Of a stretch of 63,869 bases of DNA, positions 23,285 through 59,169 are shown piece after piece (the stretch's first letter is position 1; the number at the start of each line of letters is the position of its first letter). The translations under genes and the position numbers were made by a program. The stretch comes from a virus (taxonomy: Duplodnaviria; Caudoviricetes): IMG/VR virus record IMGVR_UViG_3300027816_000108, positions 1 through 63,869 of that record; one strand, written 5' to 3'. The notes below the pieces were generated by a model. It did no database searches. It worked only from the letters and a program-made list of their open reading frames with translations, and was not told where the DNA came from.

Positions 23285-23776
23285 ATGCACGACATATATA
23301 AACTTTCGCAGCCCGTTATTGATATAATCAATCCATTAGCTAAAATGGAGTTATTTCAAACAAGTTTCTATACCCGATTAGGGGCAATAGCAAACAACTT
23401 GGGATTCCTTGTAGCCGAGCAGTATTTCTATGCTGAAAGCAACGAGGAAAAGACACATTTTGATATGTGGAAAGATTATGTACTTGGCAGGGGAAATGAC
23501 TTTGACGTGCCAACTATTGAAGCCCCCGATTTGAGTGGTAAATCATTGTACGAACTAAGCGAACTTGCCCTTGAAATAGAAGCAGAGGTAAGCGGTATGT
23601 ACCAAGATGCAGCCATGAAGGTGTTTCCGATTTGCCAAATGACATACCGCAAAATGCAGGAGTTCATCAAGATACAAGAAGAAGCCATGAAGTTTTACGT
23701 TGACGTATGTACGGTATTGGTAGGACTTGACAAAACGGGTGAACTTGTAGTAGAAAAAACACTGTTTAAAGCATAA
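23285..23776 (+). CDS. Ferritin-like protein
   Basis: E22, Y29, E54, E55, H58, E99, Q131 match FtnA ferroxidase ligand spacing; own TATATTTG promoter. Confidence 0.85.
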   Translation: MHDIYKLSQPVIDIINPLAKMELFQTSFYTRLGAIANNLGFLVAEQYFYAESNEEKTHFDMWKDYVLGRGNDFDVPTIEAPDLSGKSLYELSELALEIEAEVSGMYQDAAMKVFPICQMTYRKMQEFIKIQEEAMKFYVDVCTVLVGLDKTGELVVEKTLFKA

Positions 23777-28898: not shown

Positions 28899-29195
28899 AT
28901 GTCATTTTACACCGAACAACAAATAGAAACTTTGACCGAAAATGCCGAGATTACCTATTTAGCTAAGGCGCAGGTAATTGCGACAATATGGGAAAGCGGT
29001 ATTGACAAGGTTCGGGAAAATAACATTATTGATGAAATGAAAAAGGCAAAAGCAATGATTGACGTTTGCAATAGCCCGATAGCCACGATTGAGCAAAAGA
29101 ACGATGCGATAGATGAGTTGGGGCGATTAGGTTATACAAGCGGTGCAACGGCAGGATATTCGGTAGGGTATGTAAGTAATTATACCAATCTGTAA
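28899..29195 (+). CDS. Small structural protein
   Basis: TAATG-coupled to the tail fiber gene. Confidence 0.55.
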   Translation: MSFYTEQQIETLTENAEITYLAKAQVIATIWESGIDKVRENNIIDEMKKAKAMIDVCNSPIATIEQKNDAIDELGRLGYTSGATAGYSVGYVSNYTNL

Positions 29196-30811
29196 TGGCA
29201 GTAGATATTATATTTCGTTCAGGCAATGGCAACCCGCTAAGTTCAGCGCAGGTTGATTCCAATTTTAAAGCCCTAAAAGTAGCCGTTGAAGCCCTGCAAG
29301 TTGCGGGTAGTGGCGTAACAAGTGTTGGGCTTAGTATGCCATCAGGATTTGCGGTAGCCAATAGCCCCGTAACGGGTGCAGGTACACTTGCTGTTACAAC
29401 CACATTAAACGGGTTTGTAAAGGGCAATGGTAGTGGTTTTACCGCAGCAGCAAACGTAAACGCAGCCACAGAATTAACGGGTGTAGTTCCCATAGCCAAT
29501 GGGGGTACAAACGACAATGGTTCATCATACGCAAGCAATAGGGTGTTGGTGTATAACGGAACAAAATTTGTTACCGCATCAACCACCACTACTGAGGTTA
29601 ATTACCTTAGCGGTGTGACAAGTAGCGTACAAACCCAAATCAACGGTAAAGAAAATACTATTACAACCCTGCCAATCAATAAAGGGGGTACGGGATTAAC
29701 CGCAACACCAACCAACGGACAGTTGTTTATAGGCAACGGTTCGGGCTATACCCTTGCAAATATTACATCATCAGACGGTAGCGTAAGCGTAACCAATGGT
29801 GCGGGTAGTGTGAATTTAACTACCGCAGTAAACATTGATAATACCGCATTTGTAGCCAAAAACGGAAACGATGCAACGGCAACGGTAAATTCGGTTGTTA
29901 ATAAGTATTTGACTATTGGTGCAGCCTTAGCGGCAGCGGGAGCAGACACCGTGTTTGTTTACGCAGGAACATACACCGAAGACATTACCCTTAACAATGG
30001 TCAAAAGGTTTATTTACAAGCAGGTGCTATAATAGACGGAACGGTAACAATGGGTAATGGAACTAACTATATATTGGGTGAGGGTTCAATAGAAAAGAGT
30101 TCAGCAGGTGATGCCGTATTAATCAACGGTAATGGCTCATCATTTAACTACATAGGTTGCTTCCAAGTAATAGGCGGAACAAATGCAACGGGACACGCTG
30201 TTAGAAAAACAGGTAGCGGATATGCTGAAATTACCCCCACTTGTAGGGCTATATATGCACGTAGCGGTAGTGATATGGCTATTGACAACCAAGCGGGTAC
30301 AATGCACATCTTTTGTCAATTTGTACAAATTACGGGGGGTACATCAATAACCACCGCATTGATTAAAAACTCGGCTACAATGTTGTTGGATATTGACCAA
30401 TTCACCACATCAGAAACAAGTGCCACCCCTGCATTATTGATTGCGGGTAGCGGTAGCAGCAGATACTACTTTAACTTGTGTACGGGATTTGTAGAAATAA
30501 CGGGTACGGGTAAAAACAATATACGTGCTAAAGGTTCAACGGGCGCAATAAAAGTAAACACGGGTAGATACCCGATTAACATTACCACAGCATCCGCAAC
30601 AGCAATAAAAGTAAGTAATATGAACCTTGCGGTAGTGGGATACGGTGGAACAGACAGGGGGATACGTTGTTCAGCAGCCAATCAAACGGTTTGGATTGAC
30701 GGCAGGGTGGTATCAAACGTTGACCATTCAAAAGCCCCTGACCCATTTGCTATTACAATCACGGGCGGAACATTTACAGTTAATACAGCACTTGACACAA
30801 CTAACCCATAA
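29195..30811 (+). CDS. Tail fiber/spike with beta-helix-like C-terminus
   Basis: LSSAQVDSNF N-terminus, PIANGGT/PINKGGTG repeats, TIGAALAAA...VYAGTY.E pectin-lyase-like start. Confidence 0.75.
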   Translation: MAVDIIFRSGNGNPLSSAQVDSNFKALKVAVEALQVAGSGVTSVGLSMPSGFAVANSPVTGAGTLAVTTTLNGFVKGNGSGFTAAANVNAATELTGVVPIANGGTNDNGSSYASNRVLVYNGTKFVTASTTTTEVNYLSGVTSSVQTQINGKENTITTLPINKGGTGLTATPTNGQLFIGNGSGYTLANITSSDGSVSVTNGAGSVNLTTAVNIDNTAFVAKNGNDATATVNSVVNKYLTIGAALAAAGADTVFVYAGTYTEDITLNNGQKVYLQAGAIIDGTVTMGNGTNYILGEGSIEKSSAGDAVLINGNGSSFNYIGCFQVIGGTNATGHAVRKTGSGYAEITPTCRAIYARSGSDMAIDNQAGTMHIFCQFVQITGGTSITTALIKNSATMLLDIDQFTTSETSATPALLIAGSGSSRYYFNLCTGFVEITGTGKNNIRAKGSTGAIKVNTGRYPINITTASATAIKVSNMNLAVVGYGGTDRGIRCSAANQTVWIDGRVVSNVDHSKAPDPFAITITGGTFTVNTALDTTNP

Positions 30812-44740: not shown

Positions 44741-47700
44741 ATGCAGGACTTTAGCCGTCACGATTTCACCAAAGGTCTTAATCAGGATTTTGACACCCGC
44801 CTTGTACCGACAAACCAATATACCGATGCACAAGATGCAGAGTTTGTTGGTAATGATAGCGGGACAATGTTTGCTGCGGAAGCAAAGAAATCAATGGCTA
44901 TTGCCTATACTATCCCGACAATCAGCGCACAAAAGCAAGAGTGGCAGATAAAGTTTGTAGCAGGTGCAGTAGCCCCCAATGACAAGGACTATGAGTTTAC
45001 CCTGAGATATTTGGGTAACACCTATACAGCTACCGTAACCGTAACGGGTTCAAGCCCCGCCACAACGCAGACAGCTATTGAAGGTTTGTTTACCACAGCG
45101 GGATTAAGCGCAACCACATCGTATGATTTGGGAACAAATGCGATTACCATATCCCAAACCGCAAATCAAATAGCAGATGTATTCTTTTCGTTTACTATTA
45201 ACGGTGAACAACAAACCACCTATTTAACCAAAGACTTTTTGGGATTCGGTGGGCAACTACAACCCGTACAATCATGTGAGTTGGACAATAAAATGTTTGT
45301 ATTGTCCAAGTGTATGAACAACGGTGCGACAGAACTTGGCGTAGTGGTAAAATCGGATAGCATAAGTTCAGTTGAACAATACACCTATACCCGACTAATG
45401 AGAACAAAGGGTATTGTATTGCCGTTAAAGACCGACAAGGGTACAACCAAGTTGGGATTTTGGGATGCAAATACCAACACCCCTGTACTCACAGCCACCG
45501 ATACATCAGCCACACAAGGGTTTTATGAGGTATCCGTAGCGGGTACGCAGTTTGGTGTGGATTGGGAAGTGGGCGATTATATCATTCACTACTTAGGCAA
45601 CTATCAAAAAAATTGGGTTAAAGTACCCAATAACGAAGTAATAGATTTTAAGGGAGAAAGATTTAAAGACGACCAATACGCACTATACTTTGTGGACAAT
45701 TATAACAAACCCAAAGTAGTGTATGTGCCTGATACATTGACGCAGGACTGCGTGGTAAAAAGCGTAACCAACCCTGACGGTACACACAACCTTTCAAGCG
45801 TAGATGAACAAACAAACCTGCAACTCATAAACAATATGGGTTACGTAGAGTTTTTGCAGCAGCTACAAAGCGGGGGTGCATTAAAAGCAGGGGGCAAGAG
45901 ATACGCAGTACGTTTTGGTGTAGGGGAAAGCAACACAACCGAGTGGAGTTTCCTTACCCCGAATGTGATACCCGTTTACAAAGAAAGCACAGAGGGTTCA
46001 GCCTATGTAATACGTGGTAACGTAGTAGGTGAAACCACAAGTAAAGCAAACGTATTACGGGTTTACAACGCACGTCCCGATGTATTTCAATGGGTAGAAC
46101 TTGCGGTAGTAAACTATGCAAGCGACCTTGCACAATCAGCCGAGTTAGTGGGTAGATATTACCACACAACCGATATAATTGACATTACACATTTTGGAAC
46201 AGAGCAGACCACACAATTAGATACGGGTTCATTATTGCAAGTTCAAGACGTGGTATTAACCGCAAAGAACCAAGAGATAAAACTCAACCGCATGAACTAT
46301 GCGGGTATTAACATTGCAACAAGCCAAGACCTTACAAGCATAGCAAGCGGTATTACCCAATCACAAAGCAAGTATGCAATGGATGGGGTTGGGCGTTCAA
46401 ATAATACCCGTGAGGGGGTGTTTGGGGCATATACCGCAGCATCAACAAATACACTTGTTGCTATATCCTTTAACGAAGTTTGGGATTTATCAAACTATTG
46501 GCAACTAAATTCACAGTTTTACCCTGCACCGTATTCGTATTTTTCGTTGAATGTATCAATGAATGTAACCCTTGCAATAGCCGCAGTACCTAATGCAGCG
46601 TGGAGGATATTGATACGAGATAACACAAATGCAATAGTTTGGACAAGCGAATACGAAAAATTAGAAGGACGTACTTTTTTTACAGCAAGTGCATTTACCC
46701 CTTTGTTATTTGCAGGTGCTACATACTATACCGTTCAGTTAGAGGTTGCCAATCAAACGGGTTTAATAACAATTACCGAGAGATATTGTGCAGGTTACAT
46801 ATCAACCAACGGACAATCAAGTACCAAAGACATAAAGTACGGTGAGTACCTTGACCCATATAACTGCGCCAATAAGGTAGGTTATATGTTGGGTGAAACC
46901 TATGCTTTTGCTATCCGATTCCACTACAAGAACGGTTATGTAAGTGACCCATATCCTATTGACGGGGGTACGTTTACATTTAACACGGATACTGAAACGG
47001 TTTTAGTTGGAAACCCACCCGTAGCTGTACAAGCACAATATACAAGTACGGGGGCAAACGATTACGCATTTGCCACATTCCTTGAACTGAACAACATTGA
47101 TATTAGTTCAATACGTGACCAAATAAACGGGTTTAGTATTTGGAGGGCGCAAGTAACAAACCCCACCATAATGGGTACGGGGGTATTTGTTCCGTCACAC
47201 GGATTTACAGGTATTGACCCAACTGTAACCGCAAGTTCGCAGAACGGTAACTTTTCATGGGGATATTACTCGGCACAAATACGTGGTAATGACTACGGAA
47301 CTATTATACCGTCAACCACCAATAAAGTGCGTCAGTTTGGTATGATGATGTGCCCCGATGTAATGTTTGGCAAAACACAATTCGACTATGCCAACGGGGA
47401 TAAGCTAATAAACTTGGGGCAATTTGACCGCTATCAACGGGAAGACAATATGTTTGTTACCCCCGCTATTGGTGACTTTTCAGAATACACGGGCGCATCA
47501 GCCCTTGTAACTCCCGAAGAGTATGACATATCGGATAGTGTTATTACAGCATATAGCGATTCAAAAAGAAAGTTAAGACAAGCAGTATCGGCAACCGAAG
47601 ATTGGGAGGTTTCAGCCTTATTGGATTCAACGGGTGCATATACCACAGGCAACGCCACAGGCATAGCCATAGCATTAGATGCAGATGAATACGCAAACAA

Positions 47701-49435
47701 AGTAACAACGGCTAATGATTACGGGGTGTATAATGTTATTTACAAACGCACCGTAAACGGGCAATACGATTTTGATAACATCACCTATGTACCAACGGGT
47801 ACGTATTACAATGTAACCGCAGATAGCCCCGATATTGTTTCGGGAATACAAGTGTTTGGGGGAGATACCTACACACAAAAAACTATTATGCGTACCGTTT
47901 ACTTTGCTTTCCCCGTGACTATTAGCGGTATCAACTTCTACGTATCGGCAGGTATTAGTTTCTACTCGCAGAATAGAATTAACACTCAACTAAGGTTTAT
48001 TGAGCAGGAAGAGTTAATGTACCCATACAACGTAGAGTTGGATGAATATGTTTGTCCGCCTATTTACCGCACCGAGTTCCTTGCAGACTACCAAGAAGAC
48101 CCCATTCACTATGATGCGTCATACAGCGCAGACAACCTTGTGAACGTAGTTGACGGGTATAACAGCAGAGTAGCAGTAAATGGTATGTACCCCGCAAGAA
48201 TAATGTATTCCGAGCAAAAGCAGTACAACACATTCCTTGATGCGTACAGGGTGCTGTTACCGTTGAACATAAAAGACCTTGACGTAAAAGACGGGGAGAT
48301 AGTAGGCTTGTATGATACGGGTGATTACATAATGGCTATACAGCGTGATGCCATTATCGTGTTGCCATACCAAGCAGACGTAGTGGTAAACTCAGGCGCA
48401 GGTGACGTTTACGTAGGTAACGGTGAAGTATATGCCCGAAGAGGAACAAAGGTATCTACATTGGGAACAACCCTAAAATCAGCTACCTTATCGGGTAAGA
48501 ACAGAAACGGCAACCCCACAATATATTGGTATAGCATACCGTATAAAATCTTTATGAGGTATAGCGGTGACGGTATCCGAAAGCTATCCGATGAAAACCA
48601 AATGCGTACATGGTTTTTGAATAACACAGCGTTCATTAAAAACGAATACGACATACGACTTGGGTTTAACATCGCCAAACAAGATGTGCTTATTACAGCA
48701 GATTGCTTGAACAACAATGCGGCTTGGTGGAATAACTCCACATCGTATAATGTTGGAAACTTTGTAAAGTACGGTGCATCAGGTAGCTATGAAACATTTG
48801 AACAAACCCCCGACATATATCGAGCCACAGGCAACAACACCAACGATGCCCCGTTTGGTAGCTTGAATTGGGAATACATTGAACCAACCGACAATAGGTA
48901 TTACAATAAGTGGACATTGATATTCAACGAGTTACGTAATTCGTTCAGTACATTTACAAGCTATTACCCATTGCGGTATTTGAATTTTCAACAAGATACA
49001 ATGGCAAGCAGACCTATTGACAACGTAGGTCAGGTGTACATCTTGGACAAAGGAACGGATTATTTAAAGTGGTGGAATAACGGTTCAACCCACAAAGCGG
49101 GGGAATTTATGGTAGAAGTAGTGGTAAACAAAAACCCCGAAGTATCTAAGCGATTAGTGTCAACAGGCTTGGCAGTAGGAGAAAACTTTGATACCAACAA
49201 CTTACCAACACTTATTGCAAATAACGAAACTCAGACAAGTACACAAACCGAATGGTTACTACGCAGGGGTGAGTTAATCACAAGCGTAAAGAACCAAGTA
49301 ACGGGGGTAGGAACGCTAACAAGCAGCCCGATAATAGGGCAATGGAATAAGATAAAGATAACCCACACGTATTACATTAAGTTGGTAAGTATTATCAACA
49401 GATTCTACGCAAAATTCAGGTTGCCTTTTAGATAA
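44741..49435 (+). CDS. Tail nozzle/stabilization protein (P22 gp10-like)
   Basis: FTKGLNQD...Y.DA N-terminus; ARIMYSEQ and GEIVGL beta-propeller region. Confidence 0.7.
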   Translation: MQDFSRHDFTKGLNQDFDTRLVPTNQYTDAQDAEFVGNDSGTMFAAEAKKSMAIAYTIPTISAQKQEWQIKFVAGAVAPNDKDYEFTLRYLGNTYTATVTVTGSSPATTQTAIEGLFTTAGLSATTSYDLGTNAITISQTANQIADVFFSFTINGEQQTTYLTKDFLGFGGQLQPVQSCELDNKMFVLSKCMNNGATELGVVVKSDSISSVEQYTYTRLMRTKGIVLPLKTDKGTTKLGFWDANTNTPVLTATDTSATQGFYEVSVAGTQFGVDWEVGDYIIHYLGNYQKNWVKVPNNEVIDFKGERFKDDQYALYFVDNYNKPKVVYVPDTLTQDCVVKSVTNPDGTHNLSSVDEQTNLQLINNMGYVEFLQQLQSGGALKAGGKRYAVRFGVGESNTTEWSFLTPNVIPVYKESTEGSAYVIRGNVVGETTSKANVLRVYNARPDVFQWVELAVVNYASDLAQSAELVGRYYHTTDIIDITHFGTEQTTQLDTGSLLQVQDVVLTAKNQEIKLNRMNYAGINIATSQDLTSIASGITQSQSKYAMDGVGRSNNTREGVFGAYTAASTNTLVAISFNEVWDLSNYWQLNSQFYPAPYSYFSLNVSMNVTLAIAAVPNAAWRILIRDNTNAIVWTSEYEKLEGRTFFTASAFTPLLFAGATYYTVQLEVANQTGLITITERYCAGYISTNGQSSTKDIKYGEYLDPYNCANKVGYMLGETYAFAIRFHYKNGYVSDPYPIDGGTFTFNTDTETVLVGNPPVAVQAQYTSTGANDYAFATFLELNNIDISSIRDQINGFSIWRAQVTNPTIMGTGVFVPSHGFTGIDPTVTASSQNGNFSWGYYSAQIRGNDYGTIIPSTTNKVRQFGMMMCPDVMFGKTQFDYANGDKLINLGQFDRYQREDNMFVTPAIGDFSEYTGASALVTPEEYDISDSVITAYSDSKRKLRQAVSATEDWEVSALLDSTGAYTTGNATGIAIALDADEYANKVTTANDYGVYNVIYKRTVNGQYDFDNITYVPTGTYYNVTADSPDIVSGIQVFGGDTYTQKTIMRTVYFAFPVTISGINFYVSAGISFYSQNRINTQLRFIEQEELMYPYNVELDEYVCPPIYRTEFLADYQEDPIHYDASYSADNLVNVVDGYNSRVAVNGMYPARIMYSEQKQYNTFLDAYRVLLPLNIKDLDVKDGEIVGLYDTGDYIMAIQRDAIIVLPYQADVVVNSGAGDVYVGNGEVYARRGTKVSTLGTTLKSATLSGKNRNGNPTIYWYSIPYKIFMRYSGDGIRKLSDENQMRTWFLNNTAFIKNEYDIRLGFNIAKQDVLITADCLNNNAAWWNNSTSYNVGNFVKYGASGSYETFEQTPDIYRATGNNTNDAPFGSLNWEYIEPTDNRYYNKWTLIFNELRNSFSTFTSYYPLRYLNFQQDTMASRPIDNVGQVYILDKGTDYLKWWNNGSTHKAGEFMVEVVVNKNPEVSKRLVSTGLAVGENFDTNNLPTLIANNETQTSTQTEWLLRRGELITSVKNQVTGVGTLTSSPIIGQWNKIKITHTYYIKLVSIINRFYAKFRLPFR

Positions 49436-52716: not shown

Positions 52717-53062
52717 AGTAAACGGGGGAAGATACAGCAAGGCTGAACCCTCGAAGAGAACATATAATGGGGTTGTATATCAATCAATATGGGAAATGGA
52801 ATACGCCAAGAAGTTAGACTACCTGCTCAAAGCGGGTGAGATAAAGTCATGGAACAGGCAAGTGCCATTCCCGATTATAGTCAACGACCAAAAGGTTACA
52901 ACGTACATCTGCGACTTTGAAGTAATCAACCATGACGGAAGTAAAAGGTATATTGACCCCAAGTCATCACCCAAGATAGTTGACGAAGTGTTTAAGCTAA
53001 AGGCTAAATTGGTAAAGGCTATTTACGGGGTAGAGATTGAAGTGGTATATCAGAAGCCTTAG
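52682..53062 (+). CDS. DUF1064-like PD-(D/E)xK endonuclease
   Basis: YNGVVYQS..E, RQVPF, YICDF...IDPK. Confidence 0.7.
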   Translation: MGLTLTLRKKRKVNGGRYSKAEPSKRTYNGVVYQSIWEMEYAKKLDYLLKAGEIKSWNRQVPFPIIVNDQKVTTYICDFEVINHDGSKRYIDPKSSPKIVDEVFKLKAKLVKAIYGVEIEVVYQKP

Positions 53063-53465
53063 ATACCTTGTAGTACTCCCGTATTAGTTCCAAACGGATT
53101 GCTTGCACCCTTTCGTATGTTTGCATACTGCTTCTATCCCCGAACTCATACTTGTGATGGCAACCCACACAAAGAAGTAGATGATTACGAATGTCGCTGC
53201 GAAGAGCAGTATTGCTCCCCTTTGAAATAATATGGCTGATATAAGCAGGATTAAACTCAGGCAATCCTTTGCCACATTCTTCGCATGACTTAGTTTTGTG
53301 GCTATCCCATGCACGTTTGTAATACTCTTTGTTTTCATTTCCGTTCTTGTTTGATTTCCTAATTGGTTTATAGGATGCAGCAGCACACGGTTTACACCTG
53401 CCCTTGCTGAATATGTACGTTACATTACCGCACTCTTTGCACGGTTTCTTTTTGGGGGTTATCAT
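53019..53465 (-). CDS. HNH/NinG-like nuclease
   Basis: CEECG...SHIISKG...N..LLC..CH. Confidence 0.7.
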   Translation of the reverse strand: MITPKKKPCKECGNVTYIFSKGRCKPCAAASYKPIRKSNKNGNENKEYYKRAWDSHKTKSCEECGKGLPEFNPAYISHIISKGSNTALRSDIRNHLLLCVGCHHKYEFGDRSSMQTYERVQAIRLELIREYYKVSKASDIPLQSLPRK

Positions 53466-53767
53466 TTGAACCTTTCGCCTTTGCCCGATGTCTTACCCTC
53501 ACGGTAAACCTTTGAACCTTTACTCCAAAGGTCATTTAGTGCCCACCACGCAGCCGTTAGTTTTGATGCGTTGGCTGCACGGGCATGACGTTTACGGTAT
53601 TGTTCACGGGCTTTTGCGCTGTAATTTGAACTATATCCCTTTGCTCCGTATCGAACTATCTTTTCCTTGCCATTGGCACACGCCTTAACCACACGCTTGT
53701 GTATCCCGTCATTTGCTTCACGGGGTGTATTACACTTCATGGAATCTTTGTCAATACGCTTAGTCAT
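53462..53767 (-). CDS. Conserved small basic phage protein
   Basis: KIVRYGAKG...YRKRH...AAWWA; leaderless promoter. Confidence 0.7.
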   Translation of the reverse strand: MTKRIDKDSMKCNTPREANDGIHKRVVKACANGKEKIVRYGAKGYSSNYSAKAREQYRKRHARAANASKLTAAWWALNDLWSKGSKVYREGKTSGKGERFK

Positions 53768-53798
53768 ACCACAAATATAACCATTTGTAAAATAACAA

Positions 53799-54467
53799 TC
53801 AACGTATTATTTGGAATAGCAAATCCTCAGTTACCTGACTTGGGGGACAATGCAAATCCCCCTGCAATGTTATGAGTTTAGCCCCGTTACCTACCATTAC
53901 TTCGCTTTGTTTGTAGTGAACAATAGTGTCGTCTTTATAATGAATCAATGTTACGGGGCAATCGAACTTATGGTCTGATACATTCACATCCCCATAGGTA
54001 CGGGCAACACCCAATAGTTTACTACACAGCCAATCGTTTGTATTGGATATAGTGGCAACACATATCACCCCCTCTACCCTGTTCTTGCTTGCGTAGTTCA
54101 ATACAATATTAGTACCTGCACTTTGCCCGACTAACCACACCCTTTTAATACCCATTGATTTCAGGGCAGCAATAGCGTTGGTTATATCCTCAAGCATACT
54201 ATCAGATGTTGCGGGTAAAAACCTATAATTCATAGCCGCATAGGAATATCCCCTTGATTTGATTAGGGGTTTGATATACTCCCAATCAGACATATCACCC
54301 GATACCCACGCACCACCATGTACAAATAGGCAACAGGTTTCACCCGTTAATTGATACGTCATAACCTGACGTTCATGTTGCCCGTATCTCAATACGGATT
54401 GGGTTTCTTTTTCTTTGGCGCACCCAATAAGGAACGGCATAATTAAAAATAATATTCTTTGTAACAT
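53799..54467 (-). CDS. Alpha/beta hydrolase (esterase) lipoprotein
   Basis: Lipobox LIGC, HGGAW oxyanion motif, GQSAG nucleophile elbow, Asp/His candidates (DDTIV, DLHC). Confidence 0.8.
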   Translation of the reverse strand: MLQRILFLIMPFLIGCAKEKETQSVLRYGQHERQVMTYQLTGETCCLFVHGGAWVSGDMSDWEYIKPLIKSRGYSYAAMNYRFLPATSDSMLEDITNAIAALKSMGIKRVWLVGQSAGTNIVLNYASKNRVEGVICVATISNTNDWLCSKLLGVARTYGDVNVSDHKFDCPVTLIHYKDDTIVHYKQSEVMVGNGAKLITLQGDLHCPPSQVTEDLLFQIIR

Positions 54468-54488
54468 AGTTTTAATTAATATTTTGGT

Positions 54489-54552
54489 TGTATGGATTTT
54501 GGCTACTGATAATCAACTAATTACAATTCAAGGTGCAAGAAGCAGGTAGTTA
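54489..54552 (+). mobile_element. attI-like site B (ends in core GTTA)
   Basis: 54/64 identical to 8346-8409; AATCAACTAATTA IHF-like motif; heads the 5-cassette array. Confidence 0.65.
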
Positions 54553-54560
54553 TGTGCCAT

Positions 54561-55115
54561 TTAAAGAACGACACTGCTCTCAACTTCATTTCCCCAAACA
54601 TCCCAACCATTTCTCGGATAACGGCAGAAAAGTTCAACTCTTGGTAAATCACCAAACAACAGTTCAATTCGCTCAATCGCTTCAATAGGTTTCTTACTAT
54701 GTTTTGTTCTTTCTGCTTCTATTAGTTGAAAAATGTTGTTTGCTTTTTTGTGTTGCAACATATTACCTTTTGCACCTAAAATACACACCTCACAGTTTTT
54801 CATTGTCCACGCCCCAACATTTGCACAAGTATTGCCTTTATTGGTTATTTTCTTCCAAATAAAAACTATTGTTCGGTATGTAAAGCCCCACGCTTCTATT
54901 AATTCAATCCCTTCTTTTAGGTGGCTATCTGTTACCCATAAAAATAAAGCACAATCTTTGTCTGCAATATCTTTTACTGGTAATTGTTGCAACTCTTTTT
55001 TTGTCATCGTTGGGTATTGCTCATCTATAAGTCGGTCTTTTCTGCCGTTATCCTGATAAACCCCTTTGTTAAATCCCCAAGCTGGGTCTGCATAAATTAT
55101 TTGATATTTCTTCAT
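54561..55115 (-). CDS. MT-A70-family adenine methyltransferase (cassette 1)
   Basis: IIYADPAW, LFLWVT, WGF.Y.T..F.W.K, HSKKP, ELF.R...GWDVWGNE. Confidence 0.9.
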   Translation of the reverse strand: MKKYQIIYADPAWGFNKGVYQDNGRKDRLIDEQYPTMTKKELQQLPVKDIADKDCALFLWVTDSHLKEGIELIEAWGFTYRTIVFIWKKITNKGNTCANVGAWTMKNCEVCILGAKGNMLQHKKANNIFQLIEAERTKHSKKPIEAIERIELLFGDLPRVELFCRYPRNGWDVWGNEVESSVVL

Positions 55116-55145
55116 ATTTATAAATTAAATTCGTGAATAAAAAAC

Positions 55146-55245
55146 GGCACATAACACGGTATATAAGCAAGTTTGCCATCAAGTTTATCGGTAATTTGAA
55201 ACATTCTGCAAGGCAAACCTGCTCATATACCCACCGTTAGCACCC
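55146..55245 (+). repeat. attC site 1
   Basis: GGCACATAAC...GTATATAAGCAAGTTTGCC/GGCAAACCTGCTCATATAC...GTTAGCACCC. Confidence 0.85.
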
Positions 55246-55473
55246 ATTGTAGAAATAATCCACATTGAAGCTAATAGTTAATATTCTACCATCATATCTA
55301 AATTGGTGGTTAATGTACTTTTCCCCTTTTACAATCGTTTTACCAGTTCCGTAGCATTGTCGCTTTCTGTTACTTGTTCTCTCAGTCGTAGAGCGTACAT
55401 TATCAAAAACAACGGGTGCTAACAGCGTATATAAAACATTACTGGGTTGTAGTTTTTTGTTACTGTGTGCCAT
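55237..55473 (-). CDS. Cassette 2 hypothetical protein
   Basis: Starts in the attC2 loop; its stop is the TTA of the core site. Confidence 0.65.
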   Translation of the reverse strand: MAHSNKKLQPSNVLYTLLAPVVFDNVRSTTERTSNRKRQCYGTGKTIVKGEKYINHQFRYDGRILTISFNVDYFYNGC

Positions 55474-55550
55474 TTTATAAGTTTTTTATTGTTGTCAATA
55501 TTTTTGTGCTTTTCATACGCAACGTTTCATATACGAAAAACGTTACCTGC
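55414..55550 (+). repeat. attC site 2
   Basis: GGGTGCTAAC...CGTATATAAAACATTAC/GCAACGTTTCATATACG...GTTACCTGC. Confidence 0.85.
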
Positions 55551-55555
55551 AAGTG

Positions 55556-56395
55556 CTACATTTCGTTTCCAAATAGAGTTTCTGCCTGTAAATCTTTTTC
55601 TTTTCTTTTTTCTTCCCTCGCTTTTTTAATACGTTCTTCAATAATATTACAGTATTCATTTGATAATTCACTTCCAATAAAATTTCTATTACTTAAAATA
55701 CTCATTTTTGCAGTAGTTCCACTTCCCATAAAGCAATCATAAACTAAATCATTTTCATTGCTCCAAGTTATAATGTGGTCTAAACATAATTGTTCTGGGA
55801 ACATTGCAGGATGTTCAAAAGCAAAAGTATCTGATGTTGTATTTCCTTTCCCTGTTGCATATTCCCAAATATTATATCTATACCCAAGTTCTTCAACTAA
55901 TCTTTGTTTTCTATCTCCAAGTACGCCATCCTTTTCTCTTACGGTTGTTTTGCCAAACGTATAAGTTCCTCCGTATTTATTTTTTCTATCTTTTATTAAG
56001 TTAGTTGTTTTCGGTTTGCCTTTGCTTAATACAAACATAAATTCAATAGCATCTCTATATCTTCCTTTATGTGGCAATCCTCCGCTTGTTTTAGAATAAA
56101 TCATTGTGTCATAGACATTAAATCCGATACTTTGAAAATATAAACATTGTTTAAATGATGTAAGGCTTTTATTTCCATTCACAGTAGCATCTTTTACAAC
56201 CCAAATAACAACTCCACCTTGTTTGGTTATTCTATATAATTCTTTTGCAATATCCTCAAATGGAAATGAATACCCCTTGTAATCTCTTAAATTATCGTAA
56301 GGTGGAGATGTTACTGTTAAATCCACAAAACAATCGGGCATTTTTGCCATTGTTTCTAAATTGCTTTCATTATAATTCTTGTTTATCTCAATCAT
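55556..56395 (-). CDS. N4-cytosine/N6-adenine DNA methyltransferase, beta class (cassette 3)
   Basis: TSPPY, HPAMFP, DCFMGSGTT. Confidence 0.9.
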   Translation of the reverse strand: MIEINKNYNESNLETMAKMPDCFVDLTVTSPPYDNLRDYKGYSFPFEDIAKELYRITKQGGVVIWVVKDATVNGNKSLTSFKQCLYFQSIGFNVYDTMIYSKTSGGLPHKGRYRDAIEFMFVLSKGKPKTTNLIKDRKNKYGGTYTFGKTTVREKDGVLGDRKQRLVEELGYRYNIWEYATGKGNTTSDTFAFEHPAMFPEQLCLDHIITWSNENDLVYDCFMGSGTTAKMSILSNRNFIGSELSNEYCNIIEERIKKAREEKRKEKDLQAETLFGNEM

Positions 56396-56493
56396 TTTTT
56401 TAAATTTTTCAAATTAATATTTACCATCGCACAAAAAAGAAAAGAAAAAGCGTTTGCGTTCCAATTCAAATTATGTGGTAATAATCCGCACCA

Positions 56494-56590
56494 GCAGGTA
56501 ACAGCGTATATAAGAAATGGCACATAAACATTTGTGCTAACTTTCAACATTCTACAAGTGCCACTTCTTATATACGCAAAACGTTAGGTT
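56494..56590 (+). repeat. attC site 3
   Basis: GCAGGTAAC...GCGTATATAAGAAATGGCAC/GTGCCACTTCTTATATACGC...GTTAGGTT. Confidence 0.85.
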
Positions 56591-56611
56591 CAATTAAATT
56601 ATTGTTTTGAG

Positions 56612-56971
56612 TTATTTAATAAATTTACATCTAACCCAATAAAGTGTCATATTAGGTTCGTGCTGTGTATGTAGTGAATAAAAAAAACATTTAGTTGCCC
56701 CTTTCTTTTCATATTCTTCAATATCATCTTGGAATTGTTTTAAATCCTTATACATCTTACTTTCCACATATAACTCGCTACCATTATATTCAAATTTAGG
56801 TGTAGTTACTTGAATTATTTCTAATTTAGGTTTTAATGTAACCTCGGATTGACAAAACCATTCCCCATTTATTAAATAGATGTTTTGGTCTGTATCCCAC
56901 TCTATTTTTTTAATTAAACCTTCAAATAATCTATCGCCAGATTTTACAATAACTAAATCTTTTTCTTTCAT
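56612..56971 (-). CDS. Cassette 4 hypothetical protein
   Basis: ORF fills the cassette. Confidence 0.7.
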   Translation of the reverse strand: MKEKDLVIVKSGDRLFEGLIKKIEWDTDQNIYLINGEWFCQSEVTLKPKLEIIQVTTPKFEYNGSELYVESKMYKDLKQFQDDIEEYEKKGATKCFFYSLHTQHEPNMTLYWVRCKFIK

Positions 56972-57005
56972 AATTTTTTTATATGGTAAAACAATAATTT
57001 AACAA

Positions 57006-57063
57006 AACCTAACAAATGATAAACAACATTAAAACGATTGTTTATCATCAACCGTTAGCGGCA
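57006..57063 (+). repeat. attC site 4 (short)
   Basis: AACCTAAC...ATGATAAACAA/TTGTTTATCAT...GTTAGCGGCA. Confidence 0.8.
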
Positions 57064-57064
57064 A

Positions 57065-57271
57065 TTACTTCTGCACCATAGTATAAGGTCGATATTCGCC
57101 ATTCACATTCAATCTATCTAACAATCTTTTCACTCTTTCATAAGTTCTCGGTGTTACAGCCCAATCATCAGGCATCTCAATACCGTCCTTATCAAGTATC
57201 TTCCATGTAACTGCCGCTAACACATTATTTGCGTCAGTGTGGGCGATGTGCTTTTTAGAATCTGTGTGCAT
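57065..57271 (-). CDS. Cassette 5 hypothetical protein
   Basis: Starts in the attC5 loop. Confidence 0.65.
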   Translation of the reverse strand: MHTDSKKHIAHTDANNVLAAVTWKILDKDGIEMPDDWAVTPRTYERVKRLLDRLNVNGEYRPYTMVQK

Positions 57272-57350
57272 ATTTTGAACTTTAGTTTGTTAAACAATCT
57301 TTGGTGGTGTAATGCCCCACCGAACGCAAATAATCGGAACGTTATGGCGA
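57212..57350 (+). repeat. attC site 5
   Basis: TGCCGCTAAC...ATTATTTGCGT/ACGCAAATAAT...GTTATGGCG. Confidence 0.8.
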
Positions 57351-57375
57351 AATTCGCTTCGCTTTACGGTAGTAA

Positions 57376-57615
57376 TTACAGCACATAATACATTATTGTA
57401 TTGTTATCGGGGTCACAGAACATATCAATATACACCGCCCCAACCCACTTTCTAATCCGAAAAGCATTGCCTTCGGGATATATTGTGAATGGCTGTGTGC
57501 TTCGGCATATTGTATATTTACCCCCATATTGTTCGGATAATCTTTGTTCGATTCGGTTAAGACCTGCTTCATGTTGGTCAAACGATGTCTTGTGTATAAT
57601 CTTCTTGTTGCTCAT
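57376..57615 (-). CDS. Hypothetical protein
   Basis: Minus-strand operon. Confidence 0.6.
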   Translation of the reverse strand: MSNKKIIHKTSFDQHEAGLNRIEQRLSEQYGGKYTICRSTQPFTIYPEGNAFRIRKWVGAVYIDMFCDPDNNTIMYYVL

Positions 57616-57913
57616 TTGGGTCAGGGATTTGTGTGTTTAAAATGGTGGCCGCAAATTCTTGTATTAGTATTTTGTAGGTATCCCAATGGTGTACGTTCAT
57701 CTTACGTGTGCTTAGTGAATCACCAACCATGAAGTATTCTGATGAAACATTGTAGATGTCTGCTACCATTGGGATAAACCTGTTTTTAAGGTACAAATGT
57801 ACTTGTTTTTCTGTTAATTTATGACCTAATTTTTCAAATGATGATTGAATTATAGGGATGACCGTTCCCCAATAATAGGCGTTTTGTTGGGATGTTCTAC
57901 GTCTAACTTCCAT
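57578..57913 (-). CDS. NinB-like protein
   Basis: RRTSQQNAYYWG...STRKM...IPDP. Confidence 0.65.
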   Translation of the reverse strand: MEVRRRTSQQNAYYWGTVIPIIQSSFEKLGHKLTEKQVHLYLKNRFIPMVADIYNVSSEYFMVGDSLSTRKMNVHHWDTYKILIQEFAATILNTQIPDPNEQQEDYTQDIV

Positions 57914-58296
57914 ATATGTTCAATCATTTTGAAATACCTAAGTATAAGTTTGTCATTCGCTTCAATCCAATCAAGGATATTATCTCTGCCATTTATTACG
58001 GTTGAGTGGTCACGCCAACCCAAATTGCTGCCTATGCGGGTGAGTGAAATGTTTTCTTTCCATAATATGTACATAATAATTTGTCTTGGATATACTACTT
58101 CACGCTTGCGTATAGGTGAACGCAGAACTTCGGGGTCAACCCCCATTGCAACCGATAGTTCATCAATAAACTGAGCAAGAGGATTAGCCTTCCTAAATTT
58201 CAGCGTCTTACAGAACTTAACGTATTCCTTTTCGGGGTCAAAACCGTAGGTCAATCCCAAATGTTTTATAAATAAATAGCTATTCTCGAACTCCAT
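57850..58296 (-). CDS. DnaA C-terminal HTH-like protein
   Basis: RKREVVYPRQIIMY...SLTRIG..LG.RDHSTVI. Confidence 0.8.
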   Translation of the reverse strand: MEFENSYLFIKHLGLTYGFDPEKEYVKFCKTLKFRKANPLAQFIDELSVAMGVDPEVLRSPIRKREVVYPRQIIMYILWKENISLTRIGSNLGWRDHSTVINGRDNILDWIEANDKLILRYFKMIEHIWKLDVEHPNKTPIIGERSSL

Positions 58297-58781
58297 TACT
58301 TTTCTATTGTTAGTTTAACTTTTGTTGTACTTGATTTAATTGGGGGATTGATTGTATCCACCTCACCCGTGTCTTCGTTTACTAATGTCATTGGCTTGGT
58401 CAACGTTTTAAGGAACTTCTCACGGGCTTTACGGGCATCGGCATTGCGCTGTTCAGCATTGCGGTACATCGTCCACTCCATGTCCTTGCAGTTTTCGTAA
58501 TCGTATTTAGTGCCCACTTCTGCGATAGTAAACTTAACCCCGTGTTGGGTTACTTCTTTGCCGTGCTTTTCTACCTCATCAATCAGGTAAGAGTGTATAG
58601 CTTCTTCGCTTTGTTCGGCTATCTCCCGCAGGTTTCTGAGCATAGCAACCATTTCCATAGCTGTGTATGAACCACCGTCAACGGCTGATTTAATCTGCTC
58701 AACGAATGATTTGCGCTGCTCGGCATTGCACCCCTTAAACAATGCAGCTATTGACGGGGCTGTTAATTCCATTCTTTCCAT
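58296..58781 (-). CDS. Conserved phage protein (recombination module)
   Basis: EVGTKYDY..C.D..W; next to the SSB-like gene. Confidence 0.65.
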   Translation of the reverse strand: MERMELTAPSIAALFKGCNAEQRKSFVEQIKSAVDGGSYTAMEMVAMLRNLREIAEQSEEAIHSYLIDEVEKHGKEVTQHGVKFTIAEVGTKYDYENCKDMEWTMYRNAEQRNADARKAREKFLKTLTKPMTLVNEDTGEVDTINPPIKSSTTKVKLTIEK

Positions 58782-58782
58782 G

Positions 58783-59169
58783 TTAGTCTAATTTAGATGT
58801 TACCCATTCGTGAAACTTAGTTGCAAGCGGAAGCATTTGCTCGGTGCTAATCTTACCTGCTACACACAAATCTTTTGCGTATGACAAGCACATAGTAACC
58901 GCTTCCTTTTTGTGGTCTTTGCTGTACCCACCTTTGCCCCCGCCAAATGCAGGGCGATTAGGTTTGATTGTGTAGTACACCCCCGTGCCGTCTGCTTTTT
59001 GTTTCTCTTCCACGATAGCATCGGTTTCCATGCCTTCGGTGAATGTGGTTTGATTGTCTTCCTTTGTGCGGTAATAACACCGCTTCCCGTCCTCAAGGGT
59101 AATAGTGTAAGTCCACAGCCCGTACTGATTTTTTTCGGGCAACTTCTGAATTGATTTAATTTTTACCAT
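58783..59169 (-). CDS. OB-fold ssDNA-binding-like protein
   Basis: Beta-rich N-terminus, Gly-rich linker, helical C-terminus. Confidence 0.5.
   Translation of the reverse strand: MVKIKSIQKLPEKNQYGLWTYTITLEDGKRCYYRTKEDNQTTFTEGMETDAIVEEKQKADGTGVYYTIKPNRPAFGGGKGGYSKDHKKEAVTMCLSYAKDLCVAGKISTEQMLPLATKFHEWVTSKLD

Follow-up and report, generated by a model that had tools for sequence, protein, structure and literature searches.

A probable integron-like cassette array in a tailed phage, with recombinase-bearing relatives in large phages and Bacteroidota

This study analysed a window of 63,869 bp, the whole of a viral record with an estimated completeness of 89% that derives from a tailed phage, probably one with a Bacteroidota host. 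The stretch 54549-57347 is probably a recombinase-less array of five mobile cassettes, belonging to an integron-like system common to Bacteroidota and phages. The cassettes are small; two encode DNA methylases and three encode small unknown proteins (Table 1). The supporting evidence comes from the anatomy of the array, from the family of hairpins to which its sites belong, from a tyrosine recombinase that adjoins the arrays of relatives, and from natural variants.

Table 1. Features of the cassette array and its borders in the window.
Feature	Position	Strand	Description
Array-proximal junction	54468-54548	.	spacer from hydrolase start codon to first core; hairpin-free; ends ...AGCAGGTA directly before GTTA
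Cassette 1	54549-55235	+ (element polarity)	core GTTATGTGCC at 54549, reversed ORF, inverse core GGCACATAAC at 55146, H1
Cassette 1 ORF	54561-55115	-	MT-A70 family DNA methyltransferase, 184 aa; PF05063, 2.5e-31; phrog_359
Hairpin H1	55152-55239	+	88-nt class, TAAC..GTTA, 20-bp stem
Cassette 2	55236-55541	+	core GTTAGCACCC at 55236, reversed ORF, inverse core GGGTGCTAAC at 55414, H2
Cassette 2 ORF	55237-55473	-	78 aa; start inside H2
Hairpin H2	55420-55545	+	126-nt class; clear only in basal 15-bp stem
Cassette 3	55542-56582	+	core GTTACCTGC at 55542, reversed ORF, inverse core GCAGGTAAC at 56494, H3
Cassette 3 ORF	55556-56395	-	N6/N4 DNA methyltransferase, 279 aa; PF01555, 5e-40
Hairpin H3	56499-56586	+	88-nt class, 22-bp stem
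Cassette 4	56583-57053	+	core GTTAGGTT at 56583, reversed ORF, inverse core AACCTAAC at 57006, H4
Cassette 4 ORF	56612-56971	-	119 aa
Hairpin H4	57010-57057	+	48-nt class, conserved loop CATTAAAACGA; 65.8 bits
Cassette 5	57054-57340	+	core GTTAGCGGCA at 57054, reversed ORF, inverse core TGCCGCTAAC at 57212, H5
Cassette 5 ORF	57065-57271	-	68 aa; start inside H5
Hairpin H5	57218-57344	+	127-nt class; clear only in basal stem
Terminal core GTTATGG	57341-57347	+	joins phage backbone; distal array end

An earlier note on this DNA, made from the sequence alone, had described five units, each opening with a core whose inverse lies at its own far end, with a hairpin beyond each far end and a final core. 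When the window sequence was re-read, all five inverted-core pairs were located exactly where the earlier note had put them, and the hairpins (one after every inverse core, 5/5) and the final core were likewise in place. In a repeat search the inverted pairs of cassettes 1 to 5 lengthen to 14 nt/93%, 25/80%, 15/87%, 26/88% and 15/93%, respectively. The last core has no CCATAAC partner to the right of 57341, and the array therefore ends at 57341-57347. A hairpin finder returned six TAAC…GTTA matches in the window, all in a single orientation, comprising H1 to H5 and one within a methylase ORF, whereas 100 dinucleotide-preserving shuffles gave a mean of 0.35 and a maximum of 2. H1 to H5 are the sole intergenic hairpins of this type in 64 kb and share an asymmetry identical in kind, TAAC being followed by 1-2 unpaired nt and GTTA preceded by 4-6. 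The anatomy goes beyond chance, and the reading of the locus as an integron-like cassette array in a phage is upheld. As in attC-type anatomy, each of the five imperfect hairpins is bounded on one side by the inverse core (…AAC) and on the other by a core (GTT…). In DNA folds the minus strand was the more stable for all five, and the two A.C mismatches in the H1 stem on the + strand become G.T wobbles on the gene-sense strand. For H2 (z = 0.13/-0.10) and H5 (z = -1.20/-1.63), the fold of the whole element is no better than that of shuffles.

All five cassette ORFs lie on the minus strand, co-directional with the leftward replication operon. The window cargo consists of the two DNA methylases and three unknowns, with no orphan immunity genes; the cassette 4 product had no family match. 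Homologs of the cassette 1 methyltransferase were found in other arrays, as were homologs of the cassette 3 methyltransferase with 57-64% identity, recombinase-linked ones included. H3 is 95.5% identical to a hairpin at another locus (L014). A search of the whole 63,869-bp record with PF00589 gave no match, in agreement with the earlier observation that the genome has no tyrosine recombinase. A NinB/Orf-like gene is present in the phage genome.

Relatives were sought with the sequence pattern of H4, which matched in at least 120 viral stretches (1 match in the window vs 0 expected). The fetched viral loci yielded 525 unique hairpins, with a median hairpin-to-hairpin spacing of 301 nt in the phage arrays; the window hairpins are of about 48, 88 or 125 nt (48-127 nt overall). 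Stems covary, with 143 doubly-changed cells vs 47.5 in shuffles and none of 500 shuffles reaching the observed value, and loops are conserved even across distant phages. Among 278 cassettes of relatives, the inverted cores are exact over at least 8 nt in 206, the match length having its mode at 10 nt and being followed by a conserved mismatch. Mismatches within the stems are predominantly A.C or C.A (241/377, vs 43 G.T or T.G); these turn into G.T on the other strand, so that the gene-sense strand folds better. The folded bottom strand of attC carries conserved extrahelical bases. Constant extrahelical bases are absent from the present hairpin family, in which the two arms of a stem pair largely without offset. 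Its recurrent features are an A.C/G.T pair at each of two fixed places in the stem and a spacer of 1-2/5 nt. Among the 148 sampled of 371 non-redundant phage cassette ORFs were methylases, Tad6 and an exoribonuclease, and most had no family; a Thoeris inhibitor family also occurs in the phage cargo, beside methylases and many unknowns.

In large phages, the arrays are adjoined by a XerA/IntI-like tyrosine recombinase of 265-270 aa, which is encoded by at least 179 viral stretches and is present in 4 of 5 array-rich contigs, each time at one array end. Of the recombinase loci, 58 extend at least 1.5 kb upstream; a hairpin in the expected orientation lies within 1.5 kb of the recombinase in 52 of them, and three or more do so in 44. 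Summed over all loci, the upstream side has 366 hairpins in the expected orientation and 4 in the opposite one, and the downstream side has 21. The link between recombinase and hairpins is one of association, and 46 of 50 hairpin-bearing viral contigs are recombinase-free, as are 7 of the 9 that are at least 90% complete. On TIGR02249, the recombinases of the relatives score 151-161 bits in two stretches vs a cut-off of 265. Residues 182-258 of V. cholerae IntI4 (2a3v) face just 29 residues of the phage recombinase, which is thus short of about 48 aa at the IntI4-specific insertion, and XerA (4a8e) aligns with it end to end. Judged from these scores and alignments, the likely recombinase of the system is an I2-less XerA-like enzyme and not an IntI in the strict sense, contrary to the earlier suggestion of an IntI integrase.

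A CALIN with methylase cassettes has been reported in the Polaribacter phage P12002L by Qi, Rajabal, Ghaly, Tetu and Gillings 2023 (PMC9892861), with two attC sites predicted by HattCI/Infernal 'with divergent directions'; IntI1 in E. coli recombined the bottom strand of one of them at G^TT (their section 3.4). The P12002L array was found here to carry minus-strand DNA methylases and TAAC…GTTA hairpins, the loop type of H4 included, and P12002L encodes no recombinase of the XerA/IntI-like phage family. With five sites in 2.8 kb and no tyrosine recombinase in the record, the window array is also a CALIN if its hairpins count as attC-type. The recombination by IntI1, the fit of the site ends to the classical boxes (…AAC / GTT…) and the inverse cores within cassettes, an integron signature, would all agree with ordinary attC sites of canonical integrons, served by an I2-bearing IntI, the Xer-like recombinase being unrelated. 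This explanation is nevertheless considered unlikely, because the recombinase at the array ends lacks the IntI4 insertion and falls far below the TIGR02249 cut-off, because the stems show conserved A.C/G.T positions and the 1-2/5-nt spacer rather than constant bulged bases, and because the loops are conserved across distant phages. Additionally, very few complete integrons are reported for Bacteroidetes by IntegronFinder 2.0.

Because the inverted cores read alike on either strand, they cannot by themselves fix the direction of the cassettes. Of 67 unique regions upstream of a recombinase in relatives, 58 have a conserved attI-like motif (TATATA..ATA) that ends exactly at GTTA, and the first cassette there has no hairpin in front of it. 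In phages, 29-55 nt separate this site from the start of the recombinase gene downstream of it, and the cassette ORFs run toward the site. The left half, up to this GTTA, is identical within each of the sets L252/L253, L263/L268 and L304/L306/L308, yet the members of a set differ in the first cassette attached to it. The motif is absent from the window junction 54468-54548. Polarity is settled by the abutment of the attI-like motif on GTTA in these relatives, by the window array beginning hairpin-free and ending with a hairpin, by hairpins going more often with the TAAC-side cassette, and by a natural variant without exactly cassette 1 (both described below). A cassette therefore runs core, reversed ORF, inverse core, hairpin, and the genes are antisense to the site polarity, as had been proposed.

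The same hairpin family was found on Bacteroidota chromosomes in rAID-1-like arrays, together with a recombinase of 43% identity, a figure that compares the phage recombinase with a Bacteroidales chromosomal recombinase examined here. In these chromosomal arrays (Bacteroidales, Flavobacteriia), the recombinase is followed by co-directional ORFs split by hairpins, with the same inverted-core logic. The ORFs are classical in sense, 25/31 left and 19/31 right neighbours lying on the hairpin strand, and one bacterial first cassette encodes a SUKH immunity-type protein. On the chromosomes, many hairpins occur as scattered single copies, a hint that their role in bacteria may be an additional or a different one.

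Gene orientation also bears on whether the hairpins are RNA elements, which would serve the polycistronic mRNA as terminators, attenuators, stabilisers or sites of processing and so insulate accessory 'moron' genes, with shuffling as a by-product of homologous recombination at conserved sequences. In phages the hairpins are fixed in orientation to transcription, with neighbouring ORFs opposite to the hairpin strand in 114/143 and 126/143 cases and the antisense ORF the longer one in 253 of 278 intervals; the mismatches are G.U pairs in the gene-sense transcript, and the 5'-UTR beside H4 is kept in many loci. However, the bacterial hairpins are reversed relative to their genes, and the transcript there is consequently the complement, with A.C mismatches. 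No Rfam family matched the hairpins and there is no U-tract consensus after the stem, and the cassette-specific inverted cores, the attI-type junctions and the recombinase linkage are left unexplained. This RNA-level reading is therefore judged quite improbable.

Where two contigs share one flank only, the break falls at hairpin borders. The hairpin is kept with the TAAC-side cassette in 10 of 25 pairs vs 3 of 24 for the GTTA-side cassette; it differs in 11/25 left-flank-only and 20/24 right-flank-only pairs (Fisher's test for same vs different hairpin by side, p=0.02). Hairpins are thus not strictly tied to either flank: either both borders break or hairpins are replaced otherwise. One metagenome contig joins 54548 to 55236 and is without exactly cassette 1 and H1 (687 nt, GTTA on both sides), at a depth of 110 vs about 550 for the main path; the joint comes from a single Logan contig in 1 of 4 runs and has a side of 25 nt, a type of joint that calls for caution. 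An H5 variant that is 67 nt shorter (joint 57236 to 57304) occurs in 2 of 4 runs. The least probable explanation is recombinase-independent mosaicism, in which the hairpins would be conserved linkers for homologous or annealing-based module swaps, analogous to the stem-loops of T4-type phages, and the recombinase would serve, e.g., dimer resolution: the breaks at both borders, the frequent swapping of hairpins independently of either flank, a NinB/Orf-like gene that could serve in a phage without tyrosine recombinase and the many recombinase-free contigs agree with it, but homologous recombination gives no cassette-specific inverted cores exact for 10 nt and accounts neither for an attI-type junction at a fixed distance from the recombinase start with variable partners nor for the orientation bias of 366 vs 4 beside the recombinase.

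For the preferred reading, a cassette-exchange system, the following mechanism is proposed. On the + strand, a cassette would comprise G^TTA with its specific core, an opposite-strand ORF, the inverse core with TAAC, and a hairpin ending ...C-G^, and the hairpins would be recombination sites working like attC. When a cassette is circular, its cores would come together in an outer stem of 10-12 bp, followed by an asymmetric internal loop and an inner stem, with the gene-sense strand as the probable folding strand. Strand exchange would occur within GTTA at the 3' boundary of the hairpin, and cassettes would be inserted at the attI-like site TATATA..ATA^GTTA. The enzyme most likely acting is the 265-270 aa XerA/IntI-like recombinase without the integron-specific insertion, whose gene stands at the attI end of arrays in large phages and a homolog of which is encoded in the rAID-1-type arrays of Bacteroidota chromosomes. 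Since the window phage encodes no recombinase, exchange here would need an enzyme in trans, from the host or a co-infecting phage; this is plausible, as is expression of the cassette ORFs by read-through or else from their own 5' regions.

More tentatively, and with slightly less than even confidence, a single cassette economy can be envisaged in which an I2-less XerA-like recombinase acts on folded hairpins: bacteria would bank immunity genes, phages, with reversed polarity, would bank counter-defence genes (orphan methylases, Thoeris inhibitors), and small phages would borrow the recombinase from the host or from co-infecting large phages. If true, recombination of single-stranded hairpins would have arisen, or would persist, in enzymes lacking the I2 helix, which is regarded as the defining feature of integron integrases; the IntI-specific helix has been called their key innovation (PMC7790495). 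If association reflects function, phages, virulent and very large ones included, would possess a dedicated site-specific platform for gene capture and a mechanism by which accessory and anti-defence genes could turn over rapidly. For the rAID arrays of gut and marine Bacteroidota, it would supply candidate sites (the hairpins, the attI-like motif and the GTTA crossover) and a link to phages, and the system would offer a test case for tyrosine recombinases acting on folded single strands without the IntI-specific helix. The reversed ORFs show that genes need not follow the polarity of the sites, which bears on cassette expression and on the strand exposed in replication.

The system resembles classical integrons in its small, mostly single-ORF cassettes between imperfect hairpins with …AAC / GTT… boxes, in the core that opens each cassette recurring in inverse form ahead of that cassette's hairpin (5/5 in the window), in the better folding of one DNA strand and, in relatives, in a recombinase gene beside a conserved insertion site with variable first cassettes. 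It differs in a recombinase without the IntI-specific insertion, and neither the window nor the recombinases of relatives provide the integrase with IntI-specific domain that defines an integron in the sense of IntegronFinder. The sites also differ: two A.C/G.T positions are conserved, the spacer measures 1-2/5 nt and the outer stem 10-12 bp, the loops are conserved and come in three size classes, and constant extrahelical bases are absent. Another difference is the short hairpin-to-hairpin spacing, with a median of only 301 nt. Finally, phage cassette ORFs point toward attI and classical ones away from it. Xer/dif modules (IMEX elements, Acinetobacter plasmid pdif) use double-stranded dif-like sites of about 28 bp and host XerC/D. 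They share with the present arrays an Xer-family recombinase and gene modules between inversely oriented recombinase sites, whereas the sites here are hairpins of 48-127 nt with strand-biased pairing.

To call the system undescribed, as the earlier note did, is too strong: it is partly in print already, as the phage CALIN of Qi et al. 2023 and the bacterial rAID-1 of Ross et al. 2019, while the literature searched contained no report of a recombinase platform of this kind in phages or of the reversed polarity. P12002L, a virulent phage of a Flavobacteriia host, is like the window in its hairpin family, methylase cargo and want of its own recombinase of the phage family; the sections of PMC9892861 drawn on here give no account of the hairpin family, the Xer-like recombinase, an attI-like site or a consistent reversed ORF polarity.

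The rAID-1 arrays of Bacteroidales, described by Ross et al. 2019 (bioRxiv 10.1101/471110), are recombinase-associated acquired interbacterial defence clusters, in which a XerD-like tyrosine recombinase precedes a run of short genes and repetitive sequences 'reminiscent of integrons' lie between the genes (10.1101/471110; PMC12247911). The criteria are a XerD-like recombinase at the 5' side, with more than 44% identity to BF9343_RS08045, and at least two co-directional genes downstream of it with conserved intergenic motifs. The biogenesis of rAIDs has been called an open question (PMC12247911), and the portions of both sources used here mention neither phages nor hairpins. The chromosomal arrays share the hairpin family, the inverted-core logic and a relative of the recombinase with the phage arrays, in which the conserved intergenic hairpins are also present. 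Bacterial arrays have the recombinase on their 5' side, and their ORFs lead away from the attI-like site. Phage ORFs lead toward it, and in phages the array is found on the upstream side of the recombinase gene (366 hairpins vs 21 downstream), the window having no such gene. The cargo differs as well: orphan immunity genes in rAID-1, and methylases, a Thoeris inhibitor family and many unknowns in the phages.

The cassette array that an earlier note had drawn at 54549-57350 is real, and its structural reading is right. All ten cores and inverse cores lie where they had been placed, and the final core GTTATGG at 57341 was recovered with no inverse partner to its right; in a repeat search of the window, the five core pairs extend to 14-26 nt at 80-93% complementarity. 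The array sits in a linear record of 63,869 bp, estimated to be ~89% complete, that encodes tailed-phage genes (large terminase, portal, primase/helicase, exonuclease) and also carries very long + strand ORFs at 16451-23260 (2269 aa), 23776-27963 (1395 aa) and 44741-49435 (1564 aa). All five cassette ORFs are on the minus strand. Two of them encode DNA methyltransferases (MT-A70 in cassette 1, N6_N4_Mtase in cassette 3), and those of 78, 119 and 68 aa gave no family match, the 119-aa protein of cassette 4 scoring only 0.76 in Protein Atlas, under the usable range. The 78-aa and 68-aa ORFs start inside their right-hand hairpin.

A rule-based hairpin finder (TAAC, a short spacer, a stem no shorter than 10 bp, GTTA) returned five intergenic hairpins, H1 to H5, and one match within a methylase ORF across the whole window, in a single orientation throughout, compared with a mean of 0.35 and a maximum of 2 in 100 dinucleotide-preserving shuffles of the window. 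The window hairpins leave 1-2 nt unpaired past TAAC and 4-6 nt ahead of GTTA; the match inside the methylase ORF, the sole one outside intergenic sites, has no such spacer asymmetry. Additionally, a mini TAAC…GTTA hairpin at 29370-29396 (minus strand), within the ORF 29195-30811, scored 18.7 bits (E 0.13) with R1, a covariance model of the short-type hairpins, and is probably due to chance.

Hairpins and other inverted repeats in and around the cassettes
Feature	Coordinates	Source or location	Detail
Intergenic hairpin H1	55152-55239	rule-based finder	
Intergenic hairpin H2	55420-55545	rule-based finder	
Intergenic hairpin H3	56499-56586	rule-based finder	
Intergenic hairpin H4	57010-57057	rule-based finder	
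Intergenic hairpin H5	57218-57344	rule-based finder	
TAAC…GTTA-bounded inverted repeat	56206-56319	inside N6_N4 methylase ORF	11-bp stem TCCACCTT…AAGGTGGA
Perfect 18-nt purine/pyrimidine inverted repeat	55594-55611 and 56433-56450	flanks nearly all of the cassette 3 methylase ORF	

The hairpins belong to a family that extends well beyond this phage. Short blastn matches of 53000-59000 coincided with hairpins; the phages concerned are two huge uncultured ones and the Polaribacter phages P12002L and P12002S. A gapped pattern derived from H4 (TAAC, the loop CATTAAAACG, CGTTA) matched at least 120 stretches of viral contigs and once in the window, where 0 matches were expected. Across 146 pattern instances the loop is constant and the stems vary freely yet stay complementary. 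In 33 distinct hairpin sequences, 89.8% of cells were paired vs. 63.8% in shuffles, and 143 cells were doubly changed vs. 47.5, a value reached by 0 of 500 shuffles; pairing fell to ~30% when partner columns were slid. R1, built from these 33 sequences, detected only H4 in the window (65.8 bits), and Rfam contained nothing relevant (greA, E 0.69, and mir-994, E 2.9, scored well under their gathering thresholds). Since R1 covers the short type only and the long hairpins need a model of their own, the rule-based finder was used instead, which misses diverged copies because it requires exact TAAC and GTTA. It yielded 255 and then 525 unique hairpins from viral loci, in size classes of ~48, ~88 and ~125 nt with spacers mostly of 2/5 and 1/5 nt, and the flank consensus extends 12 nt past the hairpin on each side (…ACTGCNNM-TAAC and GTTA-KNNGYAAT). 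Position 11 has a conserved A opposite C, and 241 of 377 stem mismatches are A.C or C.A (43 are G.T or T.G). Because the + strand mismatches are mostly of this kind, the gene-sense complement has G.T wobbles there. In DNA folding, the minus strand was the more stable in five of five window hairpins (H1, -16.4 vs. -12.8 kcal/mol); whole-element folds of H2 and H5 were no better than shuffles.

Close relatives of the window were sought through its DnaA-like neighbour gene, and none was found. A blastn search of 53000-59000 against 50,697 phage records gave short matches in 16 records, none covering at least 80%, and a tblastn search of all retrieved loci with the flanking genes (hydrolase, orf79, NinB) and with cassettes 2, 4 and 5 gave nothing at E<=1e-8. 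The comparison was therefore built on family-wide statistics and metagenome contigs. In fourteen public runs, 96% or more of the words sampled from 53800-57900 were present, indicating that most populations keep a stable array. Variant joints were sought in four runs (contigs of three, raw reads of one with 4 reads only). A contig of run X14 joins 54548 to 55236, removing 687 nt that are exactly cassette 1 and H1 and leaving GTTA on both sides, at a depth of 110 vs. ~550 for the main path. This is one contig from one of the four runs; its shorter side is 25 nt, a length expected of a junction unitig at word size 31, but short-sided joints call for caution. An H5 variant shorter by 67 nt was present in two of the four runs. 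In the segment 56951-57087, which covers H4 and the adjoining, conserved 5' region of cassette 4, depth reached 4-10x that of the remaining phage sequence (X14, 2275 vs. ~570; run X5, 264 vs. ~27-39), and many metagenome contigs depart from the window sequence at hairpin borders. Other genomes of the samples therefore contain the same hairpins, and H4 with its adjoining region is shared by many of them. A backward joint, 57049 to 56581, was considered as an excised circle and rejected: the 'GG' between its sides differs from the window spacer, and it was read as another genome's copy. Within cassette 3, contigs join 55612 to 56433 at the 18-nt repeat (two of four runs) and 55562 to 56486 (one run); therefore, cassettes with the same ends and another or no body may exist. 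A joint from 56251 to 56366, near the repeat in the methylase ORF, was seen in one run at low depth.

The absence of a tyrosine recombinase from the window was borne out by a PF00589 search of the whole record, which gave no match. Of the five viral contigs richest in arrays, four do encode one, of 265-270 aa. These proteins combine PF00589 with an N-terminal SAM_4 domain and have an intact R-K-H-R-H-Y catalytic set. Their best NCBIfam model is XerA_Arch (176-195 bits, cut-off 220), the integron-integrase model reaches 151-161 bits in two stretches (cut-off 265), and public protein sets name the family merely 'XerD'. The closest solved structures are P. abyssi XerA (2e-43), followed by V. cholerae IntI4; the alignment to the latter breaks where IntI4 residues 182-258 face just 29 residues of the phage protein, and the integron-specific insertion is therefore absent from the phage recombinase.

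Recombinase and hairpins are arranged in a constant manner. In all four of these contigs, the recombinase gene immediately borders one end of an array that contains 8-17 hairpins, with constant geometry, and a profile of the four recombinases found relatives encoded in 179 viral stretches. In the best 80 of these 179, where hairpin positions were counted over 509 kb upstream and 630 kb downstream, 366 upstream hairpins had the expected orientation and 4 the opposite one, compared with 15 plus 6 downstream. Among the 58 loci with at least 1.5 kb upstream of the recombinase, a hairpin of the expected orientation lies no more than 1.5 kb away in 52; in 44 there are at least three. The recombinase is encoded by 4 of 50 further hairpin-bearing viral contigs (2 of 9 among those with a completeness of 90% or more), and P12002L has no recombinase of the phage XerA-like family; the window belongs to the recombinase-less majority of hairpin carriers. 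An uncultured phage of 462 kb with hairpins in common with the window (LR756500.1, 48599-48817) has only an 88-aa open frame resembling the N-terminal part of the recombinase (6.3e-17), which may be a recombinase remnant.

Since inverted cores read alike on both strands, they cannot assign the right or the left hairpin to a cassette, and other evidence had to decide polarity. In 58 of 67 unique loci, the stretch that separates the recombinase start codon from the first cassette has a TATA-rich motif ahead of GTTA (…TATATA(T/A)AATA, then GTTA), a few of the 58 being loose matches by the criterion used. The GTTA of this attI-like site is 29-55 nt away from the start codon, and the intervening sequence is free of hairpins. 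Several loci have identical left halves and different cassettes from GTTA on (L252/L253, L263/L268 and L304/L306/L308), which is what insertion at attI would look like at the level of sequence. These junctions put the crossover where the hairpins end in GTTA; therefore, a cassette consists of core, reversed ORF, inverse core and hairpin. The alternative, a minus-strand reading in which each ORF is followed by its hairpin, was rejected in view of the hairpin-free attI-like junctions. It also disagrees with the edges of the window array, in which cassette 1 has no preceding hairpin and cassette 5 has a trailing one, and with the loss of cassette 1 together with H1 in the 54548-55236 joint. The cassette unit of the earlier note is upheld by the junctions and array edges, and the reversed gene polarity that it had proposed by these and the deletion joint. 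At its left junction (…AGCAGGTA, then GTTA), the window array is without the TATA-rich motif. In one locus (L251, G002:C1 ~132,090-132,120), the attI-like junction is immediately adjoined by a unit whose conserved loop sequence CATTAAAACGA sits between inverted cores arranged 'inside-out' (GTTATGGCA … TGCCATAAC); this unit may represent a cassette that is empty or the outcome of a recombination event. For a tRNA-like stretch beside it, ARAGORN reported 0 genes in 4 loci.

The same cassette logic was seen across 278 distinct hairpin-to-hairpin intervals from the window and the recombinase-linked arrays. In 206 of them, the core past GTTA is the exact inverse, over at least 8 nt, of the sequence before the next TAAC, most commonly with an exact core length of 10 nt (137 intervals). 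The longer ORF is antisense to the hairpin in 253 intervals and sense in 20, and 5 have no 40-aa ORF on either strand; in pattern-found loci, the neighbour ORF is on the opposite strand on the left in 114 of 143 cases and on the right in 126 of 143. The median hairpin spacing is 301 nt and the median ORF 90 aa. Where sites from different loci share one flank only, similarity stops at TAAC or at GTTA. Pairs that share the TAAC-side flank alone have the same hairpin in 10 cases, an intermediate one in 4 and a different one in 11, vs. 3, 1 and 20 for the GTTA-side flank alone (same vs. different, Fisher's test, p=0.02). These counts indicate that the hairpin tends to go with the TAAC-side cassette yet often swaps independently; the independent exchange might be explained if both borders are used or if hairpins convert one another.

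Cargo was surveyed with Pfam in a random 148 of 371 non-redundant phage cassette ORFs, most of which had no match. N6_N4_Mtase was found in 5, other DNA/RNA methylases in a few, and YopX and DUF3310 in 1 each; one cassette ORF matches Tad6, a Thoeris inhibitor family (4.6e-41), and one an Rv2179c-like 3'-5' exoribonuclease (9.9e-55). Homologs of the window's methylase cassettes occur in other arrays, recombinase-linked ones included, at 41-43% (MT-A70) and 57-64% (N6_N4) identity. The cargo fits a putative accessory or counter-defence bank.

A bacterial counterpart was also found. The H4 pattern matched at least 120 stretches of genomes, mostly Bacteroidota and many by chance: the finder detected no hairpin in 76 of 120 listed genome loci, and R1 gave 84 matches at E<=0.001 in the first 100. 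For 31 R1 matches from isolates or from contigs no shorter than 100 kb (short MAG contigs, perhaps phage, being excluded), the neighbour ORF is on the hairpin strand in 25 on the left and 19 on the right, and on the opposite strand in 3 on each side. An Aquimarina isolate contig encodes a recombinase that shares 43% identity with its phage counterpart and scores 225 bits on XerA_Arch, over the cut-off; it is followed by a mini-hairpin and …TATACAATT abutting GTTAGCAGAT, then a co-directional SUKH-family ORF, then ATCTGCTAAC with a short-type hairpin; a Vicingaceae contig has the same geometry. In Bacteroidales chromosomes, recombinase homologs (217-254 bits, one aligning with the phage protein across 261 aa at 43% identity) are followed by co-directional ORFs and ~125-nt hairpins of the phage hairpin family. 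Reading the bacterial recombinase as an IS91-type element was dismissed, the neighbouring 467-aa protein being of the SUKH family and no transposase. In a Pontimicrobium chromosome (G060, reached via L147; 150 candidates scored), ten single short-type hairpins are dispersed, on the + strand at 23-624 kb and on the - strand at 820-3278 kb, and their orientation may track replication or gene direction. Bacteria and phages have in common that recombinase and cassette ORFs lie on one coding strand, whereas the attI-like site and hairpins flip polarity between them relative to that strand. Because the hairpins can face either way with respect to transcription, a role at the RNA level alone is unlikely.

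Overall, the window array belongs to an integron-like family and is one of its members that lack a recombinase; the integron-like mechanism proposed for it rests on association and comparative anatomy. Qi et al. 2023 (PMC9892861) describe 17 CALINs from a screen of 10,705 phage genomes, among which the P12002L CALIN includes two methylases. It has two predicted attC sites, noted there as having 'divergent directions', of which one recombined with attI1 under IntI1 through the bottom strand (0 recombinants for the top strand) and the other failed to recombine. The IntegronFinder 2.0 report lists almost no complete integrons in Bacteroidetes. The accessible text of the literature searched (including PMC9892861, PMC9024848, PMC4889954, 10.1101/471110 and PMC12247911) gave no phage-encoded recombinase with arrays, nor an attI-like site, a link between phage arrays and the rAID type, or reversed polarity. 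The earlier note's description of an 'undescribed system' accordingly holds in part: judging from these portions of the literature, the bacterial form, the recombinase-linked gene arrays of Bacteroidota named rAID-1 (Ross et al. 2019), and the P12002L CALIN are in print, and the phage-borne recombinase platform appears not to have been published.
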